A stretch of 64,000 nucleotides of DNA. It comes from an uncultured Candidatus Rokubacteria bacterium. Its GTDB lineage: Bacteria; Methylomirabilota; Methylomirabilia; Rokubacteriales; CSP1-6. Below, one piece after another: positions 9,395 to 34,476 of this stretch (the first letter of the stretch is position 1; the number at the start of each line of letters is the position of its first letter). Below the pieces are notes generated by a model. It did no database searches, was not told the origin of the DNA, and saw only the letters and a program-made list of their open reading frames with translations. The stretch is from the NCBI GenBank assembly GCA_963747235.1, contig CAVVEU010000024.1, forward strand, positions 736,001-800,000, written 5' to 3'. A program made the translations under genes and the position numbers.

Positions 9395-10336
9395 TTGCTT
9401 CTCGACCTGCTAGAGCCGGCGGCCAAGCGCGTTCTGGCGCTGCTGCCGGTCCTGCTGGGCGTCAGCCTGCTCGTCTTCGCGCTCACCGCGGTCAGCCTGG
9501 GCGATCCGGCCCGGGCCATGCTGGGGCAGCGCGCCGATCCGGAGCTGGTCCAGCAGATCCGCCGGGACTACGCGCTCGACCAGCCGGTGCACGTGCGCTA
9601 CGCGACGTGGATGTCGCGGCTGGTCCGCGGCGACCTCGGCACCTCGTATCACCAGCAGCGCCCCGTCGCGGAGATCATCGCCGAGCGGCTACCCGCCACC
9701 GCGCGGCTGGCGCTGGCCGCCATGGTGGTTGCCGTCATCGGCGGCCTCGCCGCGGGAGTCGCGGCCGCGCTGCGGCCCGGCCGGCTGCTCGATCAGGTCC
9801 TCATGAGCGCCGCGGTGCTCGGCATCTCCACCCCCGTGTTCTGGCTCGGCATGATGCTCTCGCTGCTCTTCGCGGTCTGGCTCGGATGGCTGCCGGTCTC
9901 CGGGTACGGCGATGGGGACTGGGCCAATCTGGTCCTGCCGGCCCTCACCCTGGGCGCCATCCACACCGGCACGATCGCGCGCATGGCCCGCTCGAACCTG
10001 CTCGAGGTGATCCAGCAGGAGTACATCCAGACCGCGCGCGCCAAGGGACTCGCCGAGTGGGTGGTGATCGCCAAGCACGCCCTCCGCAATGCCCTGATCC
10101 CGGTGGTCACCATCATCGGCATCGGGATCGCGGATCTCCTCGTGGGCGCGCCGCTCACCGAGACGGTGTTCGCGTGGCCCGGCCTCGGGCGGATGCTGGT
10201 GGCCGCGGTGGGGCAGCGCGACCTGCCCGTGGTGATGGGCGCGGTGCTCGTCTTCGCGGTGATCTACGTCCTCGCCAACCTGGTGGTGGACCTGGCCTAT
10301 CTCGTCATCGACCCGAGGATCCGCCGTGGCGGTTGA
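9395..10336 (+). CDS. ABC peptide transporter permease (DppB-like)
   Basis: GDLGTSY, ERLPATARLA, YIQTARAKGL..KHALRNALIPVVT, ETVFAWPGLG. Confidence 0.9.
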   Translation: MLLDLLEPAAKRVLALLPVLLGVSLLVFALTAVSLGDPARAMLGQRADPELVQQIRRDYALDQPVHVRYATWMSRLVRGDLGTSYHQQRPVAEIIAERLPATARLALAAMVVAVIGGLAAGVAAALRPGRLLDQVLMSAAVLGISTPVFWLGMMLSLLFAVWLGWLPVSGYGDGDWANLVLPALTLGAIHTGTIARMARSNLLEVIQQEYIQTARAKGLAEWVVIAKHALRNALIPVVTIIGIGIADLLVGAPLTETVFAWPGLGRMLVAAVGQRDLPVVMGAVLVFAVIYVLANLVVDLAYLVIDPRIRRGG

Positions 10337-11189
10337 CGCGCTCCCGTTGCCGTCCGGGGAGCGCGGAAGCCGCCGCGTCCGCCGCCTCACCGTCGGCGCC
10401 ACGCTCGTGGGCCTGTTCGCGGCCTCGGCGGTGCTCGCCCCGTGGCTCGCGCCGTACGACCCGACCGCGGTGCCGGCCGCGCTCAGCGAGGTCATGCTCC
10501 GCCCGCCCGAGCCCGCGCACCTCTTCGGCACCGACGCGCTGGCCCGCGATCTCTTCTCCCGCGTGCTCCACGGCGGCCGCGTCTCGCTCGCGCTCGGCCT
10601 CGGGGTGGAGGTGGTGGCCGCGACGCTCGGCGTCGCGGTGGGCCTGCTCGCCGGCTACCACGGCGGCTGGCGCGATTCGCTGCTGATGCGCGCCACCGAC
10701 GTGGTGATGGCCTTCCCCTCGCTGATCCTGGCCATCGGGCTGATCGCGGTCTTCGAGCGGCCGGGCCTCGACAAGGTGGCGCTCGTGCTGGTCGCGCTCG
10801 GCTGGACCACCATCGCGCGCGTGGTGCGGGGCGAGATCCTCTCGCTCAAGGAGCGGGACTACGTGCAGGCGGCCCGCGCGCTCGGGGTGGGCCACGGGAC
10901 GATCCTGGTCCGCCACCTCCTGCCGAACGCGGTCGGGCCCGATCATCGTCGCGGCCACCATCGGCGTCGGCAGCAACATGATCGCCGAGGCCGGGCTCTC
11001 GTTCCTCGGCCTCGGCGCCCAGTCCCCCACGATCTCCTGGGGCAGCATGCTCGCCGAAGGCCAGACCTTCCTCGCCTCCGCCCCCTGGGTCGCCTTCTTC
11101 CCCGGCGCCGCGCTGTTGCTCGCGGTGCTGGGGATCAACTGCTGGGCGACGCGTTGCGAGACCTGCTGGACCCGCGCTGGCGCGATTGA
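10326..11189 (+). CDS. ABC peptide transporter permease (DppC-like), frameshifted near 10940 and 11140
   Basis: HLFGTDALARDLFSR, YVQAARALG..RHLLPN; continues in the ORF 10978 frame (EAGLSFLGLG...SWGSML). Confidence 0.85.
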   Translation: MAVDALPLPSGERGSRRVRRLTVGATLVGLFAASAVLAPWLAPYDPTAVPAALSEVMLRPPEPAHLFGTDALARDLFSRVLHGGRVSLALGLGVEVVAATLGVAVGLLAGYHGGWRDSLLMRATDVVMAFPSLILAIGLIAVFERPGLDKVALVLVALGWTTIARVVRGEILSLKERDYVQAARALGVGHGTILVRHLLPNAVGPDHRRGHHRRRQQHDRRGRALVPRPRRPVPHDLLGQHARRRPDLPRLRPLGRLLPRRRAVARGAGDQLLGDALRDLLDPRWRD

Positions 11190-11386: not shown

Positions 11387-11561
11387 AGCGGAGGGGAGCG
11401 GGCGGGGCGGGGGCGCGGGGGTGCGGCCGGTGACTCGTTCCCTCCGGGGAACGCCTAGAGCGGCTTCCCGGATTGGGAACTCCTGCGGCGAGGTTGCGAG
11501 GGAGCGGGTCGTGGTCAGAGGCCGCACCCCCGCGCCCCCGCCCCGCCCGCTCCCCTCCGCT
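11387..11561 (-). repeat. Long-stem structured element, copy 1
   Basis: Perfect 42-bp inverted arms 11387-11428 / 11520-11561; core shares GGCCTCTGACCACGAC and GAGTTCCCAATC with the copies at 18738 and 34303. Confidence 0.9.
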
Positions 11562-11566
11562 TAACG

Positions 11567-12775
<1,209 letters not shown>

Positions 12776-12950
12776 GTGGGCCCTCCCGGCGCCGGTGCCT
12801 CTGGTACGGTGTCCTTCGCCCCCTGACGTGGCCCCAACCCTAGGGCCGAGGCGCGCGATTGTCAACGCCTCGGCAGGGGGCCCGCGTCTGGACTTGGAGG
12901 GCCCTCCGTGGTAGAAAAATGCGAGACTTACGCGACATTCGGCGCTGACC

Positions 12951-13940
12951 ATGCTCTCGATCTCCGACACGGCTACCGAGATGGTGAACTGGGTGTTCCC
13001 GGAGCACGCGGGGGCGCCCGGGCAGATCCACGGGGGGCGCATGATGCAGTGGATCGCCACCTGCGGCACCATCGCGGCCTCGCGGGTGGCGCGGGGCAAC
13101 GTGGTGCTGGGCGCGATGGACGACATCGACTTCCTGCACCCGGTCAAGGTGGGCGAGGTCGCGGTGCTGCGGGCCCAGGTGGAGTACGTCGGCCGGTGCT
13201 CGCTCGAGGTCGGGGTGCGCGTGTACGCCGAGAAGCCCGCGACCGGCGAGCGGGTGCTCACGCTGTCCTCCCACCTCGTCTTCGTCAAGGTGGACGAGCA
13301 GATCAAGCCGCTCCCGGTGCCGCAGACGGTGGCGCCGCGCGGGCCGGAGGAAGAGGCCCTGCACGCGGCGGCGGGCGAGCGGCGCGCCCGGCGGCTCGCG
13401 CGCTTCGCCCGGCGCGCCGAGCGCATGCGCGAGGTGGAGGACGACGCGCCCGAGCAGCTCCGCTGGCGGTTCGAGTCCTGCCGGTCGGTGCTGCCCGAGG
13501 ATCTGCTGTTCGGCAACACCATGTTCGCGGGCAAGCTGCTGCAGGACATCGACGAGGCGGGCGGTATCCTCTCCATGCGGTACTGCCGGGGCCTGGTCAT
13601 GACCGCGTGCCTGGACGCGCTCGACTTCTACGCGCCGATCCAGTCGAACGAGGTCGTGACGTTCCAGGCGGGCCTCAACCACGTGGGGACGTCGTCGCTG
13701 GAGATCGGGGTGAAGGTGCTGAGCGAGGTGCCGTGGACCGGCGAGACCAAGCACGCCTGCACCGCCTACCTCTCCTTCGTGCACCTGGGCACCGATCCGA
13801 GCGCTCCGCTTCGGCCCCAGCCGTGCCGGCCCTTCACGCCCGAGACCCCCGCCGAGCAGCGGCGCTGGGTCGGCGCGCTGCAGCGCCGAGCGCGGCGACT
13901 CGAACGCGTCAAAGCTGTGAAACTATCCCTCAGCGCGTAG
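12951..13940 (+). CDS. Acyl-CoA thioesterase, double hotdog fold
   Basis: Two hotdog repeats ([12 protein letters not shown]...[10 protein letters not shown]; [14 protein letters not shown]...LDFYAPI). Confidence 0.85.
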
Positions 13941-18389: not shown

Positions 18390-18722
18390 GTGAGCCTGTC
18401 CTGGGACGAGTTCGCGCGCGTGGACATGCGCGTGGGCGTCGTGCTCGCCGCCCAGGAGTTTCCCGAGGCGCGGCGACCCGCGCTCAAGCTCGAGATCGAC
18501 TTCGGGCCGCTCGGCGTCAAGCGGTCGAGCGCGCAGATCACCGACGCACTACACGCCGGCGCGCTGGTCGGCCGGCGCGTGGTCGCGGTCGTCAACTTTC
18601 CGCCGAAGCGGATCGGGCCGTTCGTCTCCGAGGTGCTCGTCCTCGGCGCGTACAGCTCGGCCGGCGAGGTGATCCTCCTTGCGCCTGATCTCGACGTGGA
18701 GCCGGGGGCGCGGATCGGGTAG
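18390..18722 (+). CDS. csaA: tRNA-binding/export chaperone CsaA-like protein
   Basis: FARVDMRVG, FPEARRPA.KLEIDFG.LGVKRSSAQIT, VVNFPPKRIGPFVSEVLVLG. Confidence 0.85.
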   Translation: MSLSWDEFARVDMRVGVVLAAQEFPEARRPALKLEIDFGPLGVKRSSAQITDALHAGALVGRRVVAVVNFPPKRIGPFVSEVLVLGAYSSAGEVILLAPDLDVEPGARIG

Positions 18723-18737
18723 CTCGCTCGCGGGAGG

Positions 18738-18909
18738 CGGGGCGTCGGGAGGGGCGGGGGGCGGCAGGTGGGCCTCTGACCACGACACGCTTTCTCGTCT
18801 TGTCGCCCTGGGGAGTTCCCAATCTGGGGTCGTGTGATTCCGGGCTTCCGTGGGGCGGGGAACGGGTCAGCCGGCCCACCTGCCGCCCCCCGCCCCTCCC
18901 GACGCCCCG
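18738..18909 (+). repeat. Long-stem structured element, copy 2
   Basis: Perfect 37-bp inverted arms 18738-18774 / 18873-18909 around the conserved core. Confidence 0.92.
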
Positions 18910-19014
18910 GTCTCTCTTCCTGGTTTCCCTCCACTGGGTTCCCGCTGCTGGTCTACGCTTCTGGCTTCTCTCTGTGTGTCCGCGGTTGTCTGGCTGGGCT
19001 ACACTTCGTGGGCT

Positions 19015-20054
19015 ATGGACGTTTCGCTCTTTGACTATTCGTTGCCGGCGGAGCTGATTGCGCAGGAGCCGGCGGAGCCTCGCGATGCTTCGCGGCTGCT
19101 CGTGGTCGATCGGGCGCGCGGGGCGTGGGAGGACCGGACGTTCGGCGATCTTCCTGAGCTCTTGCGGGCGGGGGATTGCTCTGGTGGCGAATCGGAGTCG
19201 GGTGATTCCGGCGCGGTTGCTGGGGACCGCGGTCGAGGGTGGGCGGCCGGTGGAGCTGTTGATGTTGCGGCCGGTCGGGGAGGGGCGGTGGGAGGCGCTG
19301 GTGCAGCCGGGGCGCCGGTGTCGGGTCGGGGCGCGGGTGGAGCTGGCGGGTGGGGCGGCGCGGGCGCGGATCGTGGGAGAGGCGGCCAGCGGGAGCGCGG
19401 GTCGTCGAGATCGAGGCGCCGTGGCCGGTGCGGGAGCTGCTGGAGCGGCATGGGTTGCCGCCGCTGCCGCCGTACATCGCGCGGCACGATGCGCCGAAGC
19501 CGGAGGATCGCGAGCGCTACCAGACCGTGTACGCGCGCGACGACGGGTCGGTGGCGGCGCCGACCGCGGGGTTGCACTTCACGCCGGAGCTGCTGGCGCG
19601 GCTCGCCGACCGGGGCGTCGCGGTGCACTACCTGACGCTGCACGTGGGGCCGGGCACCTTCCGGCCGCTGCGGGCCACGCGGCTCGACGAGCACCGCATG
19701 GAGGCGGAGCCGATCGAGATGCCCGAGGCGACCGCGCGCGCCGTGCACGAGGCGAAGCGCGACGGCCGCCGCGTCGTCGCGGTGGGGACGACCACGACGC
19801 GGGCGCTCGAGTGGGCGATGGGCGAGGACGGGCGGCTGCGCGAGGGAGCGGGCCTCGCCGATCTCTTCATCCGGCCCGGCCACCGCTTCCGCGTGGTGGA
19901 CGCGCTCATCACCAACTTCCACCTGCCGCGCTCGACCCTGCTGGTCCTGGTGGCGGCGCTCGCGGGCCGCGACCTGATCCTGGACGCCTACCGGCACGCG
20001 GTCGCCGCGCGCTACCGCTTCTACTCGTACGGCGACGCGATGCTGATCCAGTGA
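19015..20054 (+). CDS. queA: S-adenosylmethionine:tRNA ribosyltransferase-isomerase QueA (indels near 19180 and 19390)
   Basis: [59 protein letters not shown], spread across three frames. Confidence 0.93.
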
Positions 20055-33225: not shown

Positions 33226-33672
33226 ATGAAGATCGAAGGCTCCGCCGACATTCCGGCCCCGCGCGAGAAGGTGTGGGCCGCCTTCCTCGATCCCAATATC
33301 CTGGCGCAGGCCCTGCCCGGCTGCGAGAAGCTCGAGGCGATCGGGCCGAACGAGTACAAGGCCACCATGAAGATCGGGGTCGCCGCCATCAAGGGCACCT
33401 TCGAGGGCAAGGTGAAGCTGAGCGACCTCGAGCCACCCAACCGCTACCGCATGGCGGTCGAGGGCAGCGGCGGGCCGGGCTTCGTCCGCGGCGCCGCGGG
33501 CATGCAGATGTCCGACGTGGACGGCGGCACCAAGGTGAGCTACGACGCCGACGTGCAGGTGGGCGGCCTCATCGCGAGTGTCGGGCAGCGGATGCTGGGC
33601 GGGGTCACCAAGATGATGCTCGATCAGTTCTTCACCAAGATGACCGAGCTGCTCACGTCGAAGCCGGCCTAG
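33226..33672 (+). CDS. CoxG/SRPBCC family protein
   Basis: APREKVWAAFLDP.IL...LPGC, QVGGLIASVGQR. Confidence 0.85.
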   Translation: MKIEGSADIPAPREKVWAAFLDPNILAQALPGCEKLEAIGPNEYKATMKIGVAAIKGTFEGKVKLSDLEPPNRYRMAVEGSGGPGFVRGAAGMQMSDVDGGTKVSYDADVQVGGLIASVGQRMLGGVTKMMLDQFFTKMTELLTSKPA

Positions 33673-34303
33673 CTGCTGTTCACGCTGCCCCCGCTCCTGC
33701 TGGCCGGCCTGCTCTCCATCGCGGCCGCCTCCTCGCCCCAGCCCGTGGCGGGCGACTGCGCGGGACCCGGCGGGGAGCAGCCCTCCCGCTGCCTCTACCG
33801 CTCCGCGTTCCCCAGCACCGGCCTCGTCGCCACCTGCCGCACCGACCACGACTGCAACGTCGGCTACTACTACGGCGACCCCGAGAAACCGGTCTGGCTC
33901 GACCCACCCCCGAACCAGCGGACCTTGCCGAAACCCGAAGTCATCTGGCGCGCCGCCACCTTCGCCGAGATCCGCTTCCCCTGCGGCCCCACCTGCCACA
34001 TCAGCTACTTCTTCGAAGCCAAGCGCCGCCGCCTCTCCCCCCCAAGAGATCAAACTCTGGACGTGGACCTCCGCCGCCTCCTCGTAGCCCAGGAAGACGG
34101 CAAGTCCATCGCAGTCCGCCAGATATTTTCAGGCCGAGAAGTCGCCCGCATCACCCGCGACTGGACCCCAAGCCCATCTCTCGCCAGGCATTCTCACCGA
34201 GATCCACTTCGACCCAGACGGCCGCCTCACATTCACCTGGCTAAGAAAAAACGATCGAACGCCGGTGACGGAGCGCGTGTCCATCCCCAGCATCCCACGG
34301 TAG
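33673..34303 (+). CDS. Hypothetical Cys-containing exported protein (indel near 34187; start uncertain)
   Basis: Hydrophobic N-terminus, CGPTCHISYFF; shifted frame continues GILTEIHFDPDGRLTFTW...SIPR* to TAG 34301-34303. Confidence 0.55.
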
Positions 34304-34476
34304 GCGCGCGGCGGCGCGGGCGGGGGGGCGGCACGTGGGCCGGGTGACCCGTCCCCCGCCAACGGAAGCCCGGAACCGCACGATCCCAGATTGGGAACTC
34401 TCCAGGGCACAAGACGAGTAAGCGTGTCGTGGTCAGAGGCCCACGTGCCGCCCCCCCGCCCGCGCCGCCTCGCGCC
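34303..34476 (-). repeat. Long-stem structured element, copy 3
   Basis: 39-bp inverted arms (1 mismatch) 34303-34341 / 34438-34476; core highly similar to copy 2. Confidence 0.92.

Follow-up and report, generated by a model that had tools for sequence, protein, structure and literature searches.

Upstream of queA in the 64,000-nt stretch of DNA from an uncultured soil bacterium (Candidatus Rokubacteria) analysed here (the window) lies a long inverted repeat, and the first codons of the gene differ sharply from the last in their third bases. This raises the question of whether a small repeat can set the base composition of the DNA on one side of it and, if so, by what process. An initial annotation of the window had described such a halo beside three copies of the repeat from hand counts, all of which were reproduced exactly. 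Codons 1–55 of queA (19015–19179) end in G31/T12/C12/A0, while the last 64 sense codons (C39/G24/T1) include a single T-ending codon; the spacer at 18910–19010 contains T37/C33/G27/A4; codons 34021–34185, beside the third copy, end in C32/A12/G7/T4; and near the first copy one frame of 10942–11109 ends in C44/G11/A1/T0, the weaker C-ending bias that had been claimed there. The sequences indicate that the halo is a genuine, slowly acquired and inherited evolutionary footprint of a core-bearing palindromic repeat.

The repeat element

The window holds three copies, all of family A:

11387–11561, core on the − strand: element copy 1, an inverted repeat with 48-nt arms (core match C24:747427–747523)
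18738–18909, + strand: element copy 2, recognized by its inverted repeat and core profile matches
34303–34476, core on the − strand: element copy 3, an inverted repeat with 39-nt arms (core match C24:770339–770441)

The element consists of a conserved core of 80–105 nt flanked by variable G/C arms of 26–48 nt; the arms differ among copies, leaving the core as the conserved part. The source genome (5.57 Mb, 88% complete) contains 21 copies, 13 of family A and eight of a related family B. In copy 2 the arms (18738–18774 and 18873–18909; 37 nt, perfectly complementary) enclose the core at about 18775–18872, and the predicted RNA fold has an energy of −152.5 kcal/mol (z = −9.9). Copy 1 is located directly 3′ of the stop codon of an acyl-CoA dehydrogenase gene (11570–13198, − strand; Pfam). 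The description of copy 3 as oppositely oriented is correct for the core and not for the arms: in copies 1–3 the 5′ arm is G-rich whichever strand is taken, and it is in the core, not in the arms, that copy 2 is inverted relative to copies 1 and 3.

Stem mismatches (30 A·C versus 9 G·T in 58 non-independent copies) favour the strand opposite the core as the folding strand; fold energies point to the core strand in 25 of 40 family A copies and to the opposite strand in 13 of 18 family B copies. Alifold was uninformative on the element, and the arms align poorly. A hairpin by itself is insufficient, since halos are missing beside long hairpins whose loops are short. A scan of the window against Rfam 15 gave no matches at gathering scores, and for 18700–19050 the only resemblance was to long-hairpin miRNA-precursor models, far under the cut-off (39.5 bits versus 168). 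No Y1/HUH transposase was found in the genome (88% complete), with no matches to PF01797. Integron attC sites were dropped as a candidate, the present element having a conserved centre and variable ends.

Skew on the 3′ side of the core

GC skew at +200 to +620 on the 3′ side of the core exceeds the genome 99th percentile (0.151, from 20,000 random 420-nt windows) at ten of the 21 copies (binomial P = 3e-15) and the 99.9th percentile at six. The 5′ side is flat (downstream versus upstream, Wilcoxon P = 2.9e-6), and this metaplot of the 21 copies bears out the claim of a one-sided, strand-specific halo tied to the oriented element. Absolute GC skew above 0.30 over 300 nt is found in only 32 islands per 5.57 Mb (0.05% of 18,546 non-overlapping windows); six of these adjoin six of the 13 family A copies and one adjoins a family B copy, all on the 3′ side of the core. 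No element was seen at the inspected islands without an adjoining one; these orphans include a pair of paralogous genes and two purine-rich islands of 935 nt that arose as duplicates.

Related genomes behave in the same way. Among 27 locus clusters (125 places in 21 genomes), 16 have a skew above 0.10 and none lies under −0.151; two copies from other genera, L228 and L229, are not listed by name among these clusters. For the clusters, G minus C per 100 nt over +100 to +600 is +8.9, +13.2, +9.9, +9.4, +4.0 and +3.1, against about −1 upstream. Measured from the core centre, the halos end distally at +515 to +798, a consistency that would be expected from a physical tract length.

The features that make up the halos in the window are as follows:

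18910–19014, + strand: T-rich, A-poor spacer from the 3′ arm of copy 2 to the queA start, defined by base counts
18933–19525, + strand G-/T-rich and C-poor: halo of copy 2, an uninterrupted 593-nt C>G bubble on the − strand
19015–20054, + strand: queA, S-adenosylmethionine:tRNA ribosyltransferase-isomerase (Pfam Queuosine_synth, E = 4e-90, 19263–20051)
33592–34313, G-rich on the − strand: halo of copy 3, a C>G bubble (C24:769592–770313) ranking 5 of 170,221
10862–11159, − strand: weak halo of copy 1, a 298-nt C>G bubble ranking 1941

The halo of copy 2 spans the first ∼450 nt of queA and has a skew of 0.34 at +200 to +620 (100th percentile of random windows); within 19200–19450, 100-nt windows contain 55–60 G versus 20–25 C, and the bubble (C24:754933–755525) ranks 8 of 170,221 by area. 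A TACACT box ∼8 nt 5′ of the queA ATG, conserved among in-genus orthologues, resembles a −10 element and may act as one. The initial annotation described the QueA motifs as intact; in this assembly, two single-base insertions, near 19178–19181 and 19383–19394, break the frame of the gene. Both are missing from all 17 aligned related loci and from contigs of four soil runs, and these frameshifts, private to this assembly, are probably assembly errors.

The halo of copy 3 (skew 0.30) overlaps a convergent ORF on the + strand (33673–34344) in its 3′ portion, where codons end in C and A. That of copy 1 lies in an ABC permease gene (10263–11186, + strand), also convergent, at its 3′ end, with a skew of 0.06 in this genome versus 0.14–0.21 in more distant relatives with the same element.

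Strong halos cover the 5′ ends of co-oriented queA, amidase and thioesterase genes as well as the 3′ ends of convergent cupin, MoeA and ABC permease genes; the halo is independent of gene orientation. GC3-based gene calling misassigned the strand within halos, for example at the amidase gene, and was corrected with Pfam and alignments. Regional core-strand skew (±60 kb) ranges from −0.028 to +0.043, taking both signs, while every halo is positive on that strand. Copies 2 and 3, 15 kb apart and in opposite orientation, each carry a halo of their own. Replication-associated (leading/lagging) strand skew was rejected, the sign of the halo not following replication direction.

Gain, loss and inversion of the core

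Element-bearing orthologues are more skewed than element-free ones at six loci, with ranges that overlap at some. Values at the C22 locus are 0.24–0.34 with the element (n = 5) and −0.01 to 0.13 without it (n = 13); at C3 they are 0.18–0.28 (n = 6) versus 0.00–0.05 in a distant element-free clade (n = 5); C8:28798, copy 3 of the window and C4 follow the same trend with overlapping ranges. At queA the 5′ skew is still 0.17–0.39 in four in-genus genomes without the core at this site; in other families this region is mildly G-skewed too (0.04–0.14).

The family A core at C8:274458 is private to this genome and has no halo (−0.06, as in 18 relatives), implying that the element comes first and the halo later. 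In genome G013 the core at C3 has been lost and a halo remains (0.16). At C33:115050 the core of this genome points the opposite way to that of three relatives, with the skew (−0.18) still on its former side. Skew is stronger where the element has been kept than in close relatives from which it has disappeared, so the halo seems to be maintained. The halo exists; it is one-sided, core-dependent and independent of gene and replication direction, and it both builds and decays slowly.

Base changes

At fourfold sites on the core strand, C falls from 20–46% to 9–22% and T rises from 0–5% to 4–16%; at C/T twofold sites T rises from 3–25% to 25–59%, G/A sites are nearly unaltered and every synonymous site class loses C. 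These site-class counts agree with the initial reading of a shift at synonymous positions, and such positions, in real genes of both orientations, account for most of it. The accompanying picture of a C-poor, G/T-rich strand over ∼0.5 kb holds for the loss of C and gain of G. It does not hold for T, which is not enriched on average from +200 to +600, where GC content is unchanged and the change is a C-to-G swap; T-richness is limited to about +90 to +300.

Net changes pooled over three loci comprise 77 C>G versus 20 G>C and 27 C>T versus eight G>A, with no dinucleotide context; in control regions, by consensus comparison, there are 11 C>T versus 16 G>A. The excess of C>G over C>T, the lack of context and the retained GC content fall short of showing the proposed single-strand exposure with cytosine deamination, of which the C>G transversion is not the classical product. 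DGR-type adenine mutagenesis was dropped because the base affected is C, not A.

A local mutator, as was also proposed, finds no echo in the rates: a raised substitution rate was not detected in the halos, either in divergence at two of three loci or in C↔G turnover. In what is a low-power test, the halo/control divergence ratios with and without the element are 1.08 versus 1.09 and 1.82 versus 1.89 at two loci, with 1.45 versus 0.99 at the third; turnover per G/C site is 0.080 in halos versus 0.090 in controls. Lineage-private changes, obtained with a biased estimator, give per-site C>T versus G>A of 0.083 versus 0.063 in halos and 0.049 versus 0.053 in controls. Per-site loss of C and of G is equal (0.175 versus 0.171) by the same estimator, which fails its own control. 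The halos show 224 lineage-private G losses versus 84 G gains. The lineage-private rate matrix predicts 49% GC for control DNA, observed at 73%, and therefore cannot separate mutation from selection. Fitch parsimony counts inside element-bearing clades favour common-to-rare changes and were used for totals only.

Origin of the halo

Composition alone cannot distinguish mutation bias from selection against C, and a DNA process and selection fit the data equally well. Our preferred explanation, put at somewhat less than an even chance, is that the element seeds a DNA process specific to one strand. Over ∼0.5–0.6 kb on the 3′ side, the core-bearing strand is kept C-poor, with C giving way to G where the codon permits and otherwise to T, regardless of the strand of the neighbouring gene. 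The element would seed a directional event, either an R-loop from untranslated transcripts leaving it or a nick-primed displacement or resynthesis of the core strand, and repeated exposure or recopying of one strand would deplete it of C and, to a small extent, of A. The outcome would be filtered by selection on the protein and by the strong G/C preference of this genome at third codon positions, which would explain T near the element and G further out. An excess of G over C (and of T over A) on the non-template strand is seen for the co-oriented queA, amidase and thioesterase genes; at convergent genes a non-template asymmetry would require read-through from the element side. At C8:28798, which has a strong family B halo, the gene on the 5′ side of the core is divergent, so read-through from an upstream gene is not universal. 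The search of the 88% complete genome for a Y1/HUH transposase likewise yielded no candidate enzyme. The stronger proposal, that the core-bearing palindrome seeds, in cis and according to its orientation, a DNA-processing event (a programmed R-loop, or strand displacement or resynthesis primed at a nick) and so is a local strand-specific mutator that rewrites ∼0.5 kb on the 3′ side of its core and switches sides when the core inverts between the arms, is possible but on the unlikely side.

It is also quite possible, though short of probable, that the presence of the element makes selection favour a C-poor, G-rich core strand, and hence an opposite strand rich in C and poor in G. In a version involving Rho, RNA from the opposite strand would form a C>G bubble of great length on which the factor loads, so that untranslated transcription converging on the element is terminated while core-strand RNA is refractory; in a variant, G-skew would be selected because R-loops help to terminate read-through, an idea put forward for the 3′ ends of human genes. 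A Rho gene is found in the genome. With bubbles defined by a 78-nt window and %C ≥ %G, as in PMC6144790, the opposite strand has uninterrupted C>G bubbles of 448–722 nt at nine elements, and eight halo bubbles rank 5, 8, 13, 14, 20, 24, 28 and 91 of 170,221 by area. Being among the largest such bubbles in the genome, they make Rho-linked selection a serious rival. They share with Rho utilization regions an uninterrupted %C ≥ %G over ∼80 nt or more, and any Rho dependence is putative. In that study, termination depended on Rho on every template tested whose bubble exceeded 78 bp, whereas 28 of 32 bubble-free regions gave none (PMC6144790); REP palindromes in Escherichia coli 3′ UTRs are described as partly Rho-dependent terminators (bioRxiv 10.64898/2026.03.23.713779). 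The substitutions also read as avoidance of C, with G where synonymous and otherwise T, and without a mutational context, and a bias in fixation would, as observed, leave turnover and divergence at their usual level.

Several features fit selection poorly. At convergent genes the C-rich zone lies inside a translated ORF, where ribosomes would mask it from Rho, whereas the untranslated spacer by the hairpin is A-rich, not C-rich, in the convergent direction. A Rho loading site needs no more than ∼80 nt (PMC6144790), yet the halos have a consistent length of 450–700 nt. Some of the strongest halos cover the beginnings of co-oriented genes, with no convergent gene to terminate. Near the element T increases relative to G at fourfold sites, which pure avoidance of C does not predict, and selection offers no clear reason for a need that begins with the arrival of the element.

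Improbable, though less so than the readings that follow, is the relic of an episode, in place of a continuing pressure: error-prone repair synthesis, for example, could have accompanied insertion, inversion of the core or its excision, and its trace would have faded from then on. The halos do outlast loss or flipping of the core, and the lineage-private changes (224 versus 84) seem to erode the skew, but that erosion comes from the estimator that mispredicts control GC (49% versus 73%). Moreover, the sole clearly private, recent insertion (C8:274458) has no halo, and genomes retaining the element have stronger halos than close relatives lacking it.

A sequencing or assembly artefact, for instance sequence-specific errors past the inverted repeat, is extremely improbable even though private 1-nt indels of this assembly cluster in halos (six in seven halos, ∼3.2 kb, versus four to five in ∼17 kb elsewhere), three of them in queA and the amidase gene. 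Only these indels look like errors, and other assemblies show no such enrichment (23 in halos versus 162 elsewhere). The skew itself recurs in orthologues from other assemblies and in short-read contigs from four soil runs of four studies at ∼90–95% identity, and it follows codon degeneracy, reading frames and phylogeny; it is thus no consensus error, in agreement with the initial annotation. Gene-intrinsic composition, for example Gly-, Arg- or Ala-rich protein regions, or chance has next to no likelihood: despite the residual queA skew in other families and in the four core-less genomes, the same genes are unskewed in element-free clades, the shift sits at synonymous sites, halos occur in unrelated genes on both strands and the enrichment is far from random (P = 3e-15).

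Comparison with known systems

Local strand asymmetry is usually ascribed to replication or gene transcription. Here, a small repeat that is neither gene nor origin sets a one-sided 0.5-kb compositional domain that prevails over the codon usage of conserved genes on either strand. How the domain is gained, lost and inverted can be traced over ∼20 related genomes, as a natural experiment on whether GC skew arises by mutation or selection. A mutational cause would mean a new kind of element-directed mutagenesis, and the mutator proposal, if true, an undescribed class of mobile element imposing a directional mutational field on host genes; a selective cause would mean that coding sequence in bacteria can come to contain very large zones that load Rho or are prone to R-loops. 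The halos also lower GC3, mislead composition-based gene callers and coincide with frameshift errors in this assembly.

Bacterial transcription-associated C>T asymmetry on the non-transcribed strand, reportedly described by Beletskii and Bhagwat and by Francino and Ochman in 1996 and ascribed to single-strandedness, likewise leaves one strand with less C and more T. It is weak and covers the whole gene, whereas the halo ends within genes at ∼600 nt from the element, is also seen on the antisense strand of convergent genes and consists mostly of C>G. A 2013 study reportedly found eukaryotic domains of a few hundred bases by promoters and terminators, with G exceeding C on the non-template strand, and linked them to termination in gene-dense regions. 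These R-loop/GC-skew domains are similarly local, similarly long and richer in G than in C on one strand; the halo differs in overriding codon usage on either strand and in being tied to a mobile repeat. Rho utilization regions share the uninterrupted %C ≥ %G when the halos are read on the opposite strand, but known Rho loading sites need ∼80 nt and lie in untranslated RNA, whereas the halos are 450–720 nt, lie mostly in ORFs and are found only beside the element.

REP/BIME repeats (REPINs) are likewise extragenic palindromes just past stop codons, between convergent or tandem genes; we know of no flanking skew described for them. Membership of the REP/BIME–RAYT system was rejected: the arms vary, the conserved 80–105-nt core lies inside the stem and no Y1 transposase was found in the 88% complete genome (PF01797, no matches). 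REPs can serve as 3′ UTR terminators and stabilizers (bioRxiv 10.64898/2026.03.23.713779).

The asymmetry gradient of vertebrate mitochondrial DNA, with its control region and strand-displacement replication, is a further parallel, in that an oriented cis element likewise sets a C-poor, G/T-rich strand, most strongly at fourfold sites. Inversion of the control region is followed by reversal of the skew, as reported in PMC4182315; here an inverted core adjoins a halo on its former 3′ side. The halo also differs from the mitochondrial gradient in being a local feature of 0.5 kb in a bacterial chromosome, present at ∼20 sites and independent of the direction of chromosome replication.

The element and its copies

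Each element consists of variable G/C arms around a core. The core is conserved among the three window copies and gives the element its orientation, while the arms vary from copy to copy.

11387–11561, core on − strand: copy 1
18738–18909, core on + strand: copy 2, preceding queA; 172 nt, with two perfectly complementary 37-nt arms around a ~98-nt core
34303–34476, core on − strand: copy 3

Copy 2 has a G-rich 5′ arm and a C-rich 3′ arm and, as RNA, is predicted to fold with −152.5 kcal/mol (z = −9.9); no Rfam family matches the element. A core profile search of the host genome (G000; metagenome-assembled, 5.57 Mb in 42 contigs, ~71% GC, 88% complete; the window is its C24:736001–800000) gave 13 copies, here family A, and eight further copies (family B) carry a second core with a 5′ part homologous to the A core. 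The A core hardly occurs outside the genus of the host: all 21 genomes of that genus have it, compared with two of 138 from the family's other genera and none of 24 from the order's other families. In related short-read assemblies, contigs frequently break off within the element or at its edge (e.g. G014:C25, G009:C274, G010:C286, G016:C245 and G011:C417), so that copy numbers in those genomes are underestimates.

Across 58 A and B copies, stem mismatches on the core strand are A·C or C·A in 30 cases versus G·T or T·G in nine; the former would be wobble pairs only in the strand opposite the core. Fold energies of the long stems gave no confirmation of a preferred strand.

A one-sided, oriented halo

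On the 3′ side of the core, the core strand runs through a C-poor, G-rich and proximally T-rich stretch, here termed the halo. The hand counts from which the initial annotation had described it were all reproduced exactly: codons 1–55 of queA have third bases G31/T12/C12/A0, with one T-ending codon among the final 64 sense codons, the spacer at 18910–19010 is T37/C33/G27/A4 and the codons at 34021–34185, beside copy 3, have third bases C32/A12/G7/T4. Near copy 1, one reading frame has third bases C44/G11/A1/T0. Across 19200–19450, 100-nt windows hold G at 55–60 and C at 20–25, with GC content still ~78%.

The oriented, one-sided halo is confirmed and extends beyond the window to copies throughout the genome. 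In the metaplot of the 13 A copies, the four bins +200 to +500 (distance from the core) have G−C values of +12.3, +12.4, +14.7 and +10.8 points, and those at +600 and +700 only +4.4 and +1.2; T−A reaches +12.6 only in the bin +100 to +199, and GC content is unchanged. Length is consistent across elements, with distal ends at +515 to +798. Against a null of 20,000 random 420-nt windows (sd 0.063; 99th percentile 0.151, 99.9th 0.22), the skew at +200 to +620 exceeds the 99th percentile in 10 of the 21 A and B copies and the 99.9th in six (binomial P = 3e-15), and chance is a very improbable source of the pattern. The 5′ side of the core has a mean skew of −0.04 (downstream versus upstream, Wilcoxon P = 2.9e-6). 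The genome has only 32 islands in which |GC skew| over 300 nt is above 0.30 (0.05% of 18,546 non-overlapping windows); six adjoin six A copies and one adjoins a B copy, in each case 3′ of the core and with the core strand G>C.

The halo does not depend on replication direction, the regional skew of the core strand having both signs, and halos cover the 5′ ends of co-oriented and the 3′ ends of convergent genes alike. Long hairpins with short loops and no core have no halo (outward |skew| ≤ 0.13, with one exception at −0.22). In a composition-based ORF listing, at least 11 of 13 A copies have a core-strand ORF that stops immediately ahead of the 5′ arm; a Pfam-confirmed co-oriented gene ends there in 11 of 13 A and five of eight B copies, two more B copies having an ORF with no Pfam match. 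The B element at C8:28798 nevertheless has a strong halo although the gene on its 5′ side is divergent; the halo is thus independent of a co-oriented upstream gene.

Two side observations concern other loci. B elements are also found as convergent pairs with a spacing of 120–150 nt where two genes converge, each gene being followed by one element (G000:C40:167359–167773 and C31:98277–98749); their halos are weak (0.02–0.22). Genome-wide, GC skew peaks (0.48–0.49) in two near-identical, purine-rich stretches of ~935 nt outside the window (G000:C24:128909–129842 and 144887–145823; A 0.19, G 0.44) with no element nearby.

Genes and codon sites under the halo

Pfam matches and alignments show that the halo genes are real, on either strand. 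Co-oriented genes, with the halo at the 5′ end, comprise queA, an amidase, an acyl-CoA thioesterase and one unnamed ORF (no Pfam match; hotdog-like by eye); convergent genes, with the halo at the 3′ end, include a cupin, MoeA and ABC permeases. Co-oriented genes that start inside halos carry a TAnnnT box ~8 nt before the ATG (TACACT, TATACT, TAGCAT; window 19000–19017, the amidase start at locus L027, and L029 2173–2187), which suggests leaderless mRNAs with promoters between element and start codon.

Third codon positions in core-strand letters, orthologues without versus with the element at three loci
Fourfold C: 20–46% without; 9–22% with
Fourfold G: 46–78% without; 57–83% with
Fourfold T: 0–5% without; 4–16% with, highest near the element
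Twofold C/T, base T: 3–25% without; 25–59% with
Twofold G/A, base A: little change

Pooled changes, no-element versus with-element consensus
C>G versus G>C: halo 77 versus 20; control 65 versus 50
C>T versus G>A: halo 27 versus 8; control 11 versus 16

No neighbouring base stands out as a context for C loss (22–32% of C sites lost by 5′ neighbour, 21–39% by 3′ neighbour). Given this and the C>G excess, the most apt description of the halo is avoidance of C by the core strand rather than simply C>T.

Other assemblies and consensus errors

The view of the initial annotation that the halo is not read error is upheld by its recurrence elsewhere. In 14 other in-genus assemblies the queA orthologues all have skews between +0.17 and +0.40 where they align to 19201–19460, and ~0 in the remaining gene, and soil metagenome contigs from four runs in four studies span the copy 2 halo at ~90–95% identity with its composition kept. 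With the 125 distinct places of the element in 21 genomes grouped into 27 locus clusters, downstream G−C per 100 nt was +8.9, +13.2, +9.9, +9.4, +4.0 and +3.1, with upstream flat; in skew, 16 clusters lie above 0.10 and seven above 0.151, with no cluster under −0.151. The eight clusters without a G000 member are all positive (0.01–0.16), only one exceeding 0.151. The halo is not an artefact of the G000 assembly, and an artefact of any kind is very improbable.

The statement that QueA motifs stay intact did not hold, queA being frameshifted in G000 by two extra bases (~19178–19181 and 19383–19394) that neither the soil contigs nor any of the 17 aligned relatives have. Other single-base indels private to G000 lie at +271 beside C3:62455, where the amidase gene is broken, at +205 of copy 3 and at +336 and +542 of copy 1. 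Over seven loci, six private 1-nt indels fall in halos (~3.2 kb) versus four or five in ~17 kb elsewhere. Other assemblies show no such enrichment (23 in halos versus 162 elsewhere), so the G000 indels probably reflect consensus errors where the DNA is strongly skewed. Separately, a 1-kb stretch beside the C22 element (G000:C22:1649–2691) recurs with 97% identity and no element at its end at G000:C29:83022–84057, as either a co-binned strain variant (contamination 4.9%) or a duplication.

Evolutionary order

Skew of the halo stretch in element-bearing and element-free orthologues at six loci (number of genomes in parentheses)
C3:62455: with, 0.18–0.28 (6); without, 0.00–0.05 (distant clade of 5), 0.16–0.17 (3 closer), one exception 0.29
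C22:3094: with, 0.24–0.34 (5); without, −0.01 to 0.13 (13)
Window copy 3: with, 0.07–0.28 (9, A+ orientation); without, 0.02–0.18 (7)
C4:112593: with, 0.07–0.25 (7 A+), 0.15–0.16 (2 B+); without, 0.01–0.12 (4 complete sites)
C8:28798: with, 0.20–0.27 (2); without, 0.10–0.15 (3 closer), −0.02 to 0.02 (7 distant)
queA: with, 0.23–0.42 (9, A or B core); without, 0.17–0.39 (4 in-genus), 0.04–0.14 (3 of other families)

At C8:274458 an A core private to G000 has no halo (−0.06 versus −0.06 to +0.07 in 18 relatives). At C33:115050 the G000 core points the other way from that of three relatives; the skew there (−0.18) is now on the 5′ side of the core, formerly its 3′ side. Opposite core orientations at one orthologous site in different genomes, found here and at C8:33765, copy 3 (L095, L098, L099), C4:112593 (L201) and copy 1 (L125), suggest that the core inverts by recombination between its own inverted arms. 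The intergenic stem before queA (window 18723–19014; orthologues L002–L015) holds an A core in three genomes, a B core in six, a short plain hairpin in one and nothing in the others, A and B carriers sharing outer arm sequence; at another locus (L210) one genome has a bare palindrome with a 54-nt arm and 1-nt loop. From these sequence states, palindromes already in place seem to gain, lose or exchange cores. The haloless private insertion, the halo left by a flipped core and this movement within stems together give the order: the element precedes the halo, which grows slowly and then outlasts loss or inversion of the core.

Possible origin of the asymmetry

A mutation bias acting on one strand and selection against C would move the same equilibria, so composition cannot tell them apart. 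Divergence ratios and lineage-private changes gave no sign of a mutator, both being weak estimators, one of which fails its own control. The halo/control divergence ratio with versus without the element was 1.08 versus 1.09, 1.45 versus 0.99 and 1.82 versus 1.89 at three loci. Among lineage-private changes, C↔G turnover was 0.080 per site in halos versus 0.090 in controls, C↔T, G↔T and G↔A turnover was 1.9, 2.2 and 1.09 times that of controls, and per-site loss was equal for C and G (0.175 versus 0.171).

We tentatively favour a directional DNA or RNA–DNA process, which might be an R-loop or nick-primed exposure or resynthesis. Strict anchoring to core orientation whatever is encoded, the consistent length and the proximal rise of T at fourfold sites too count in its favour. 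Cytosine deamination by a local mutator, as first proposed, is one possible form; the predominance of C>G, the retained GC content and the rate tests do not support it.

Selection for strand composition is nearly as probable. The pattern reads as 'avoid C, G where synonymous', C is lost without mutational context and turnover is not raised. Rho loading could supply the selection: the genome has a Rho gene, on the opposite strand the halos count among the genome's largest C>G bubbles without interruption (ranks 5–91 of 170,221) and such bubbles are the best-supported sequence predictor of Rho loading (PMC6144790). However, the bubble is translated in convergent genes, is 5–9 times longer than needed and is strong also where no convergent gene exists. 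That the halo is the relic of an episode is improbable.

Titles and abstract openings from a literature search contained no repeat-anchored one-sided skew domain in bacteria. The halo looks like a new form of strand asymmetry at a local scale, and gain, loss and inversion of the element at halo loci provide an unusually clean natural experiment.
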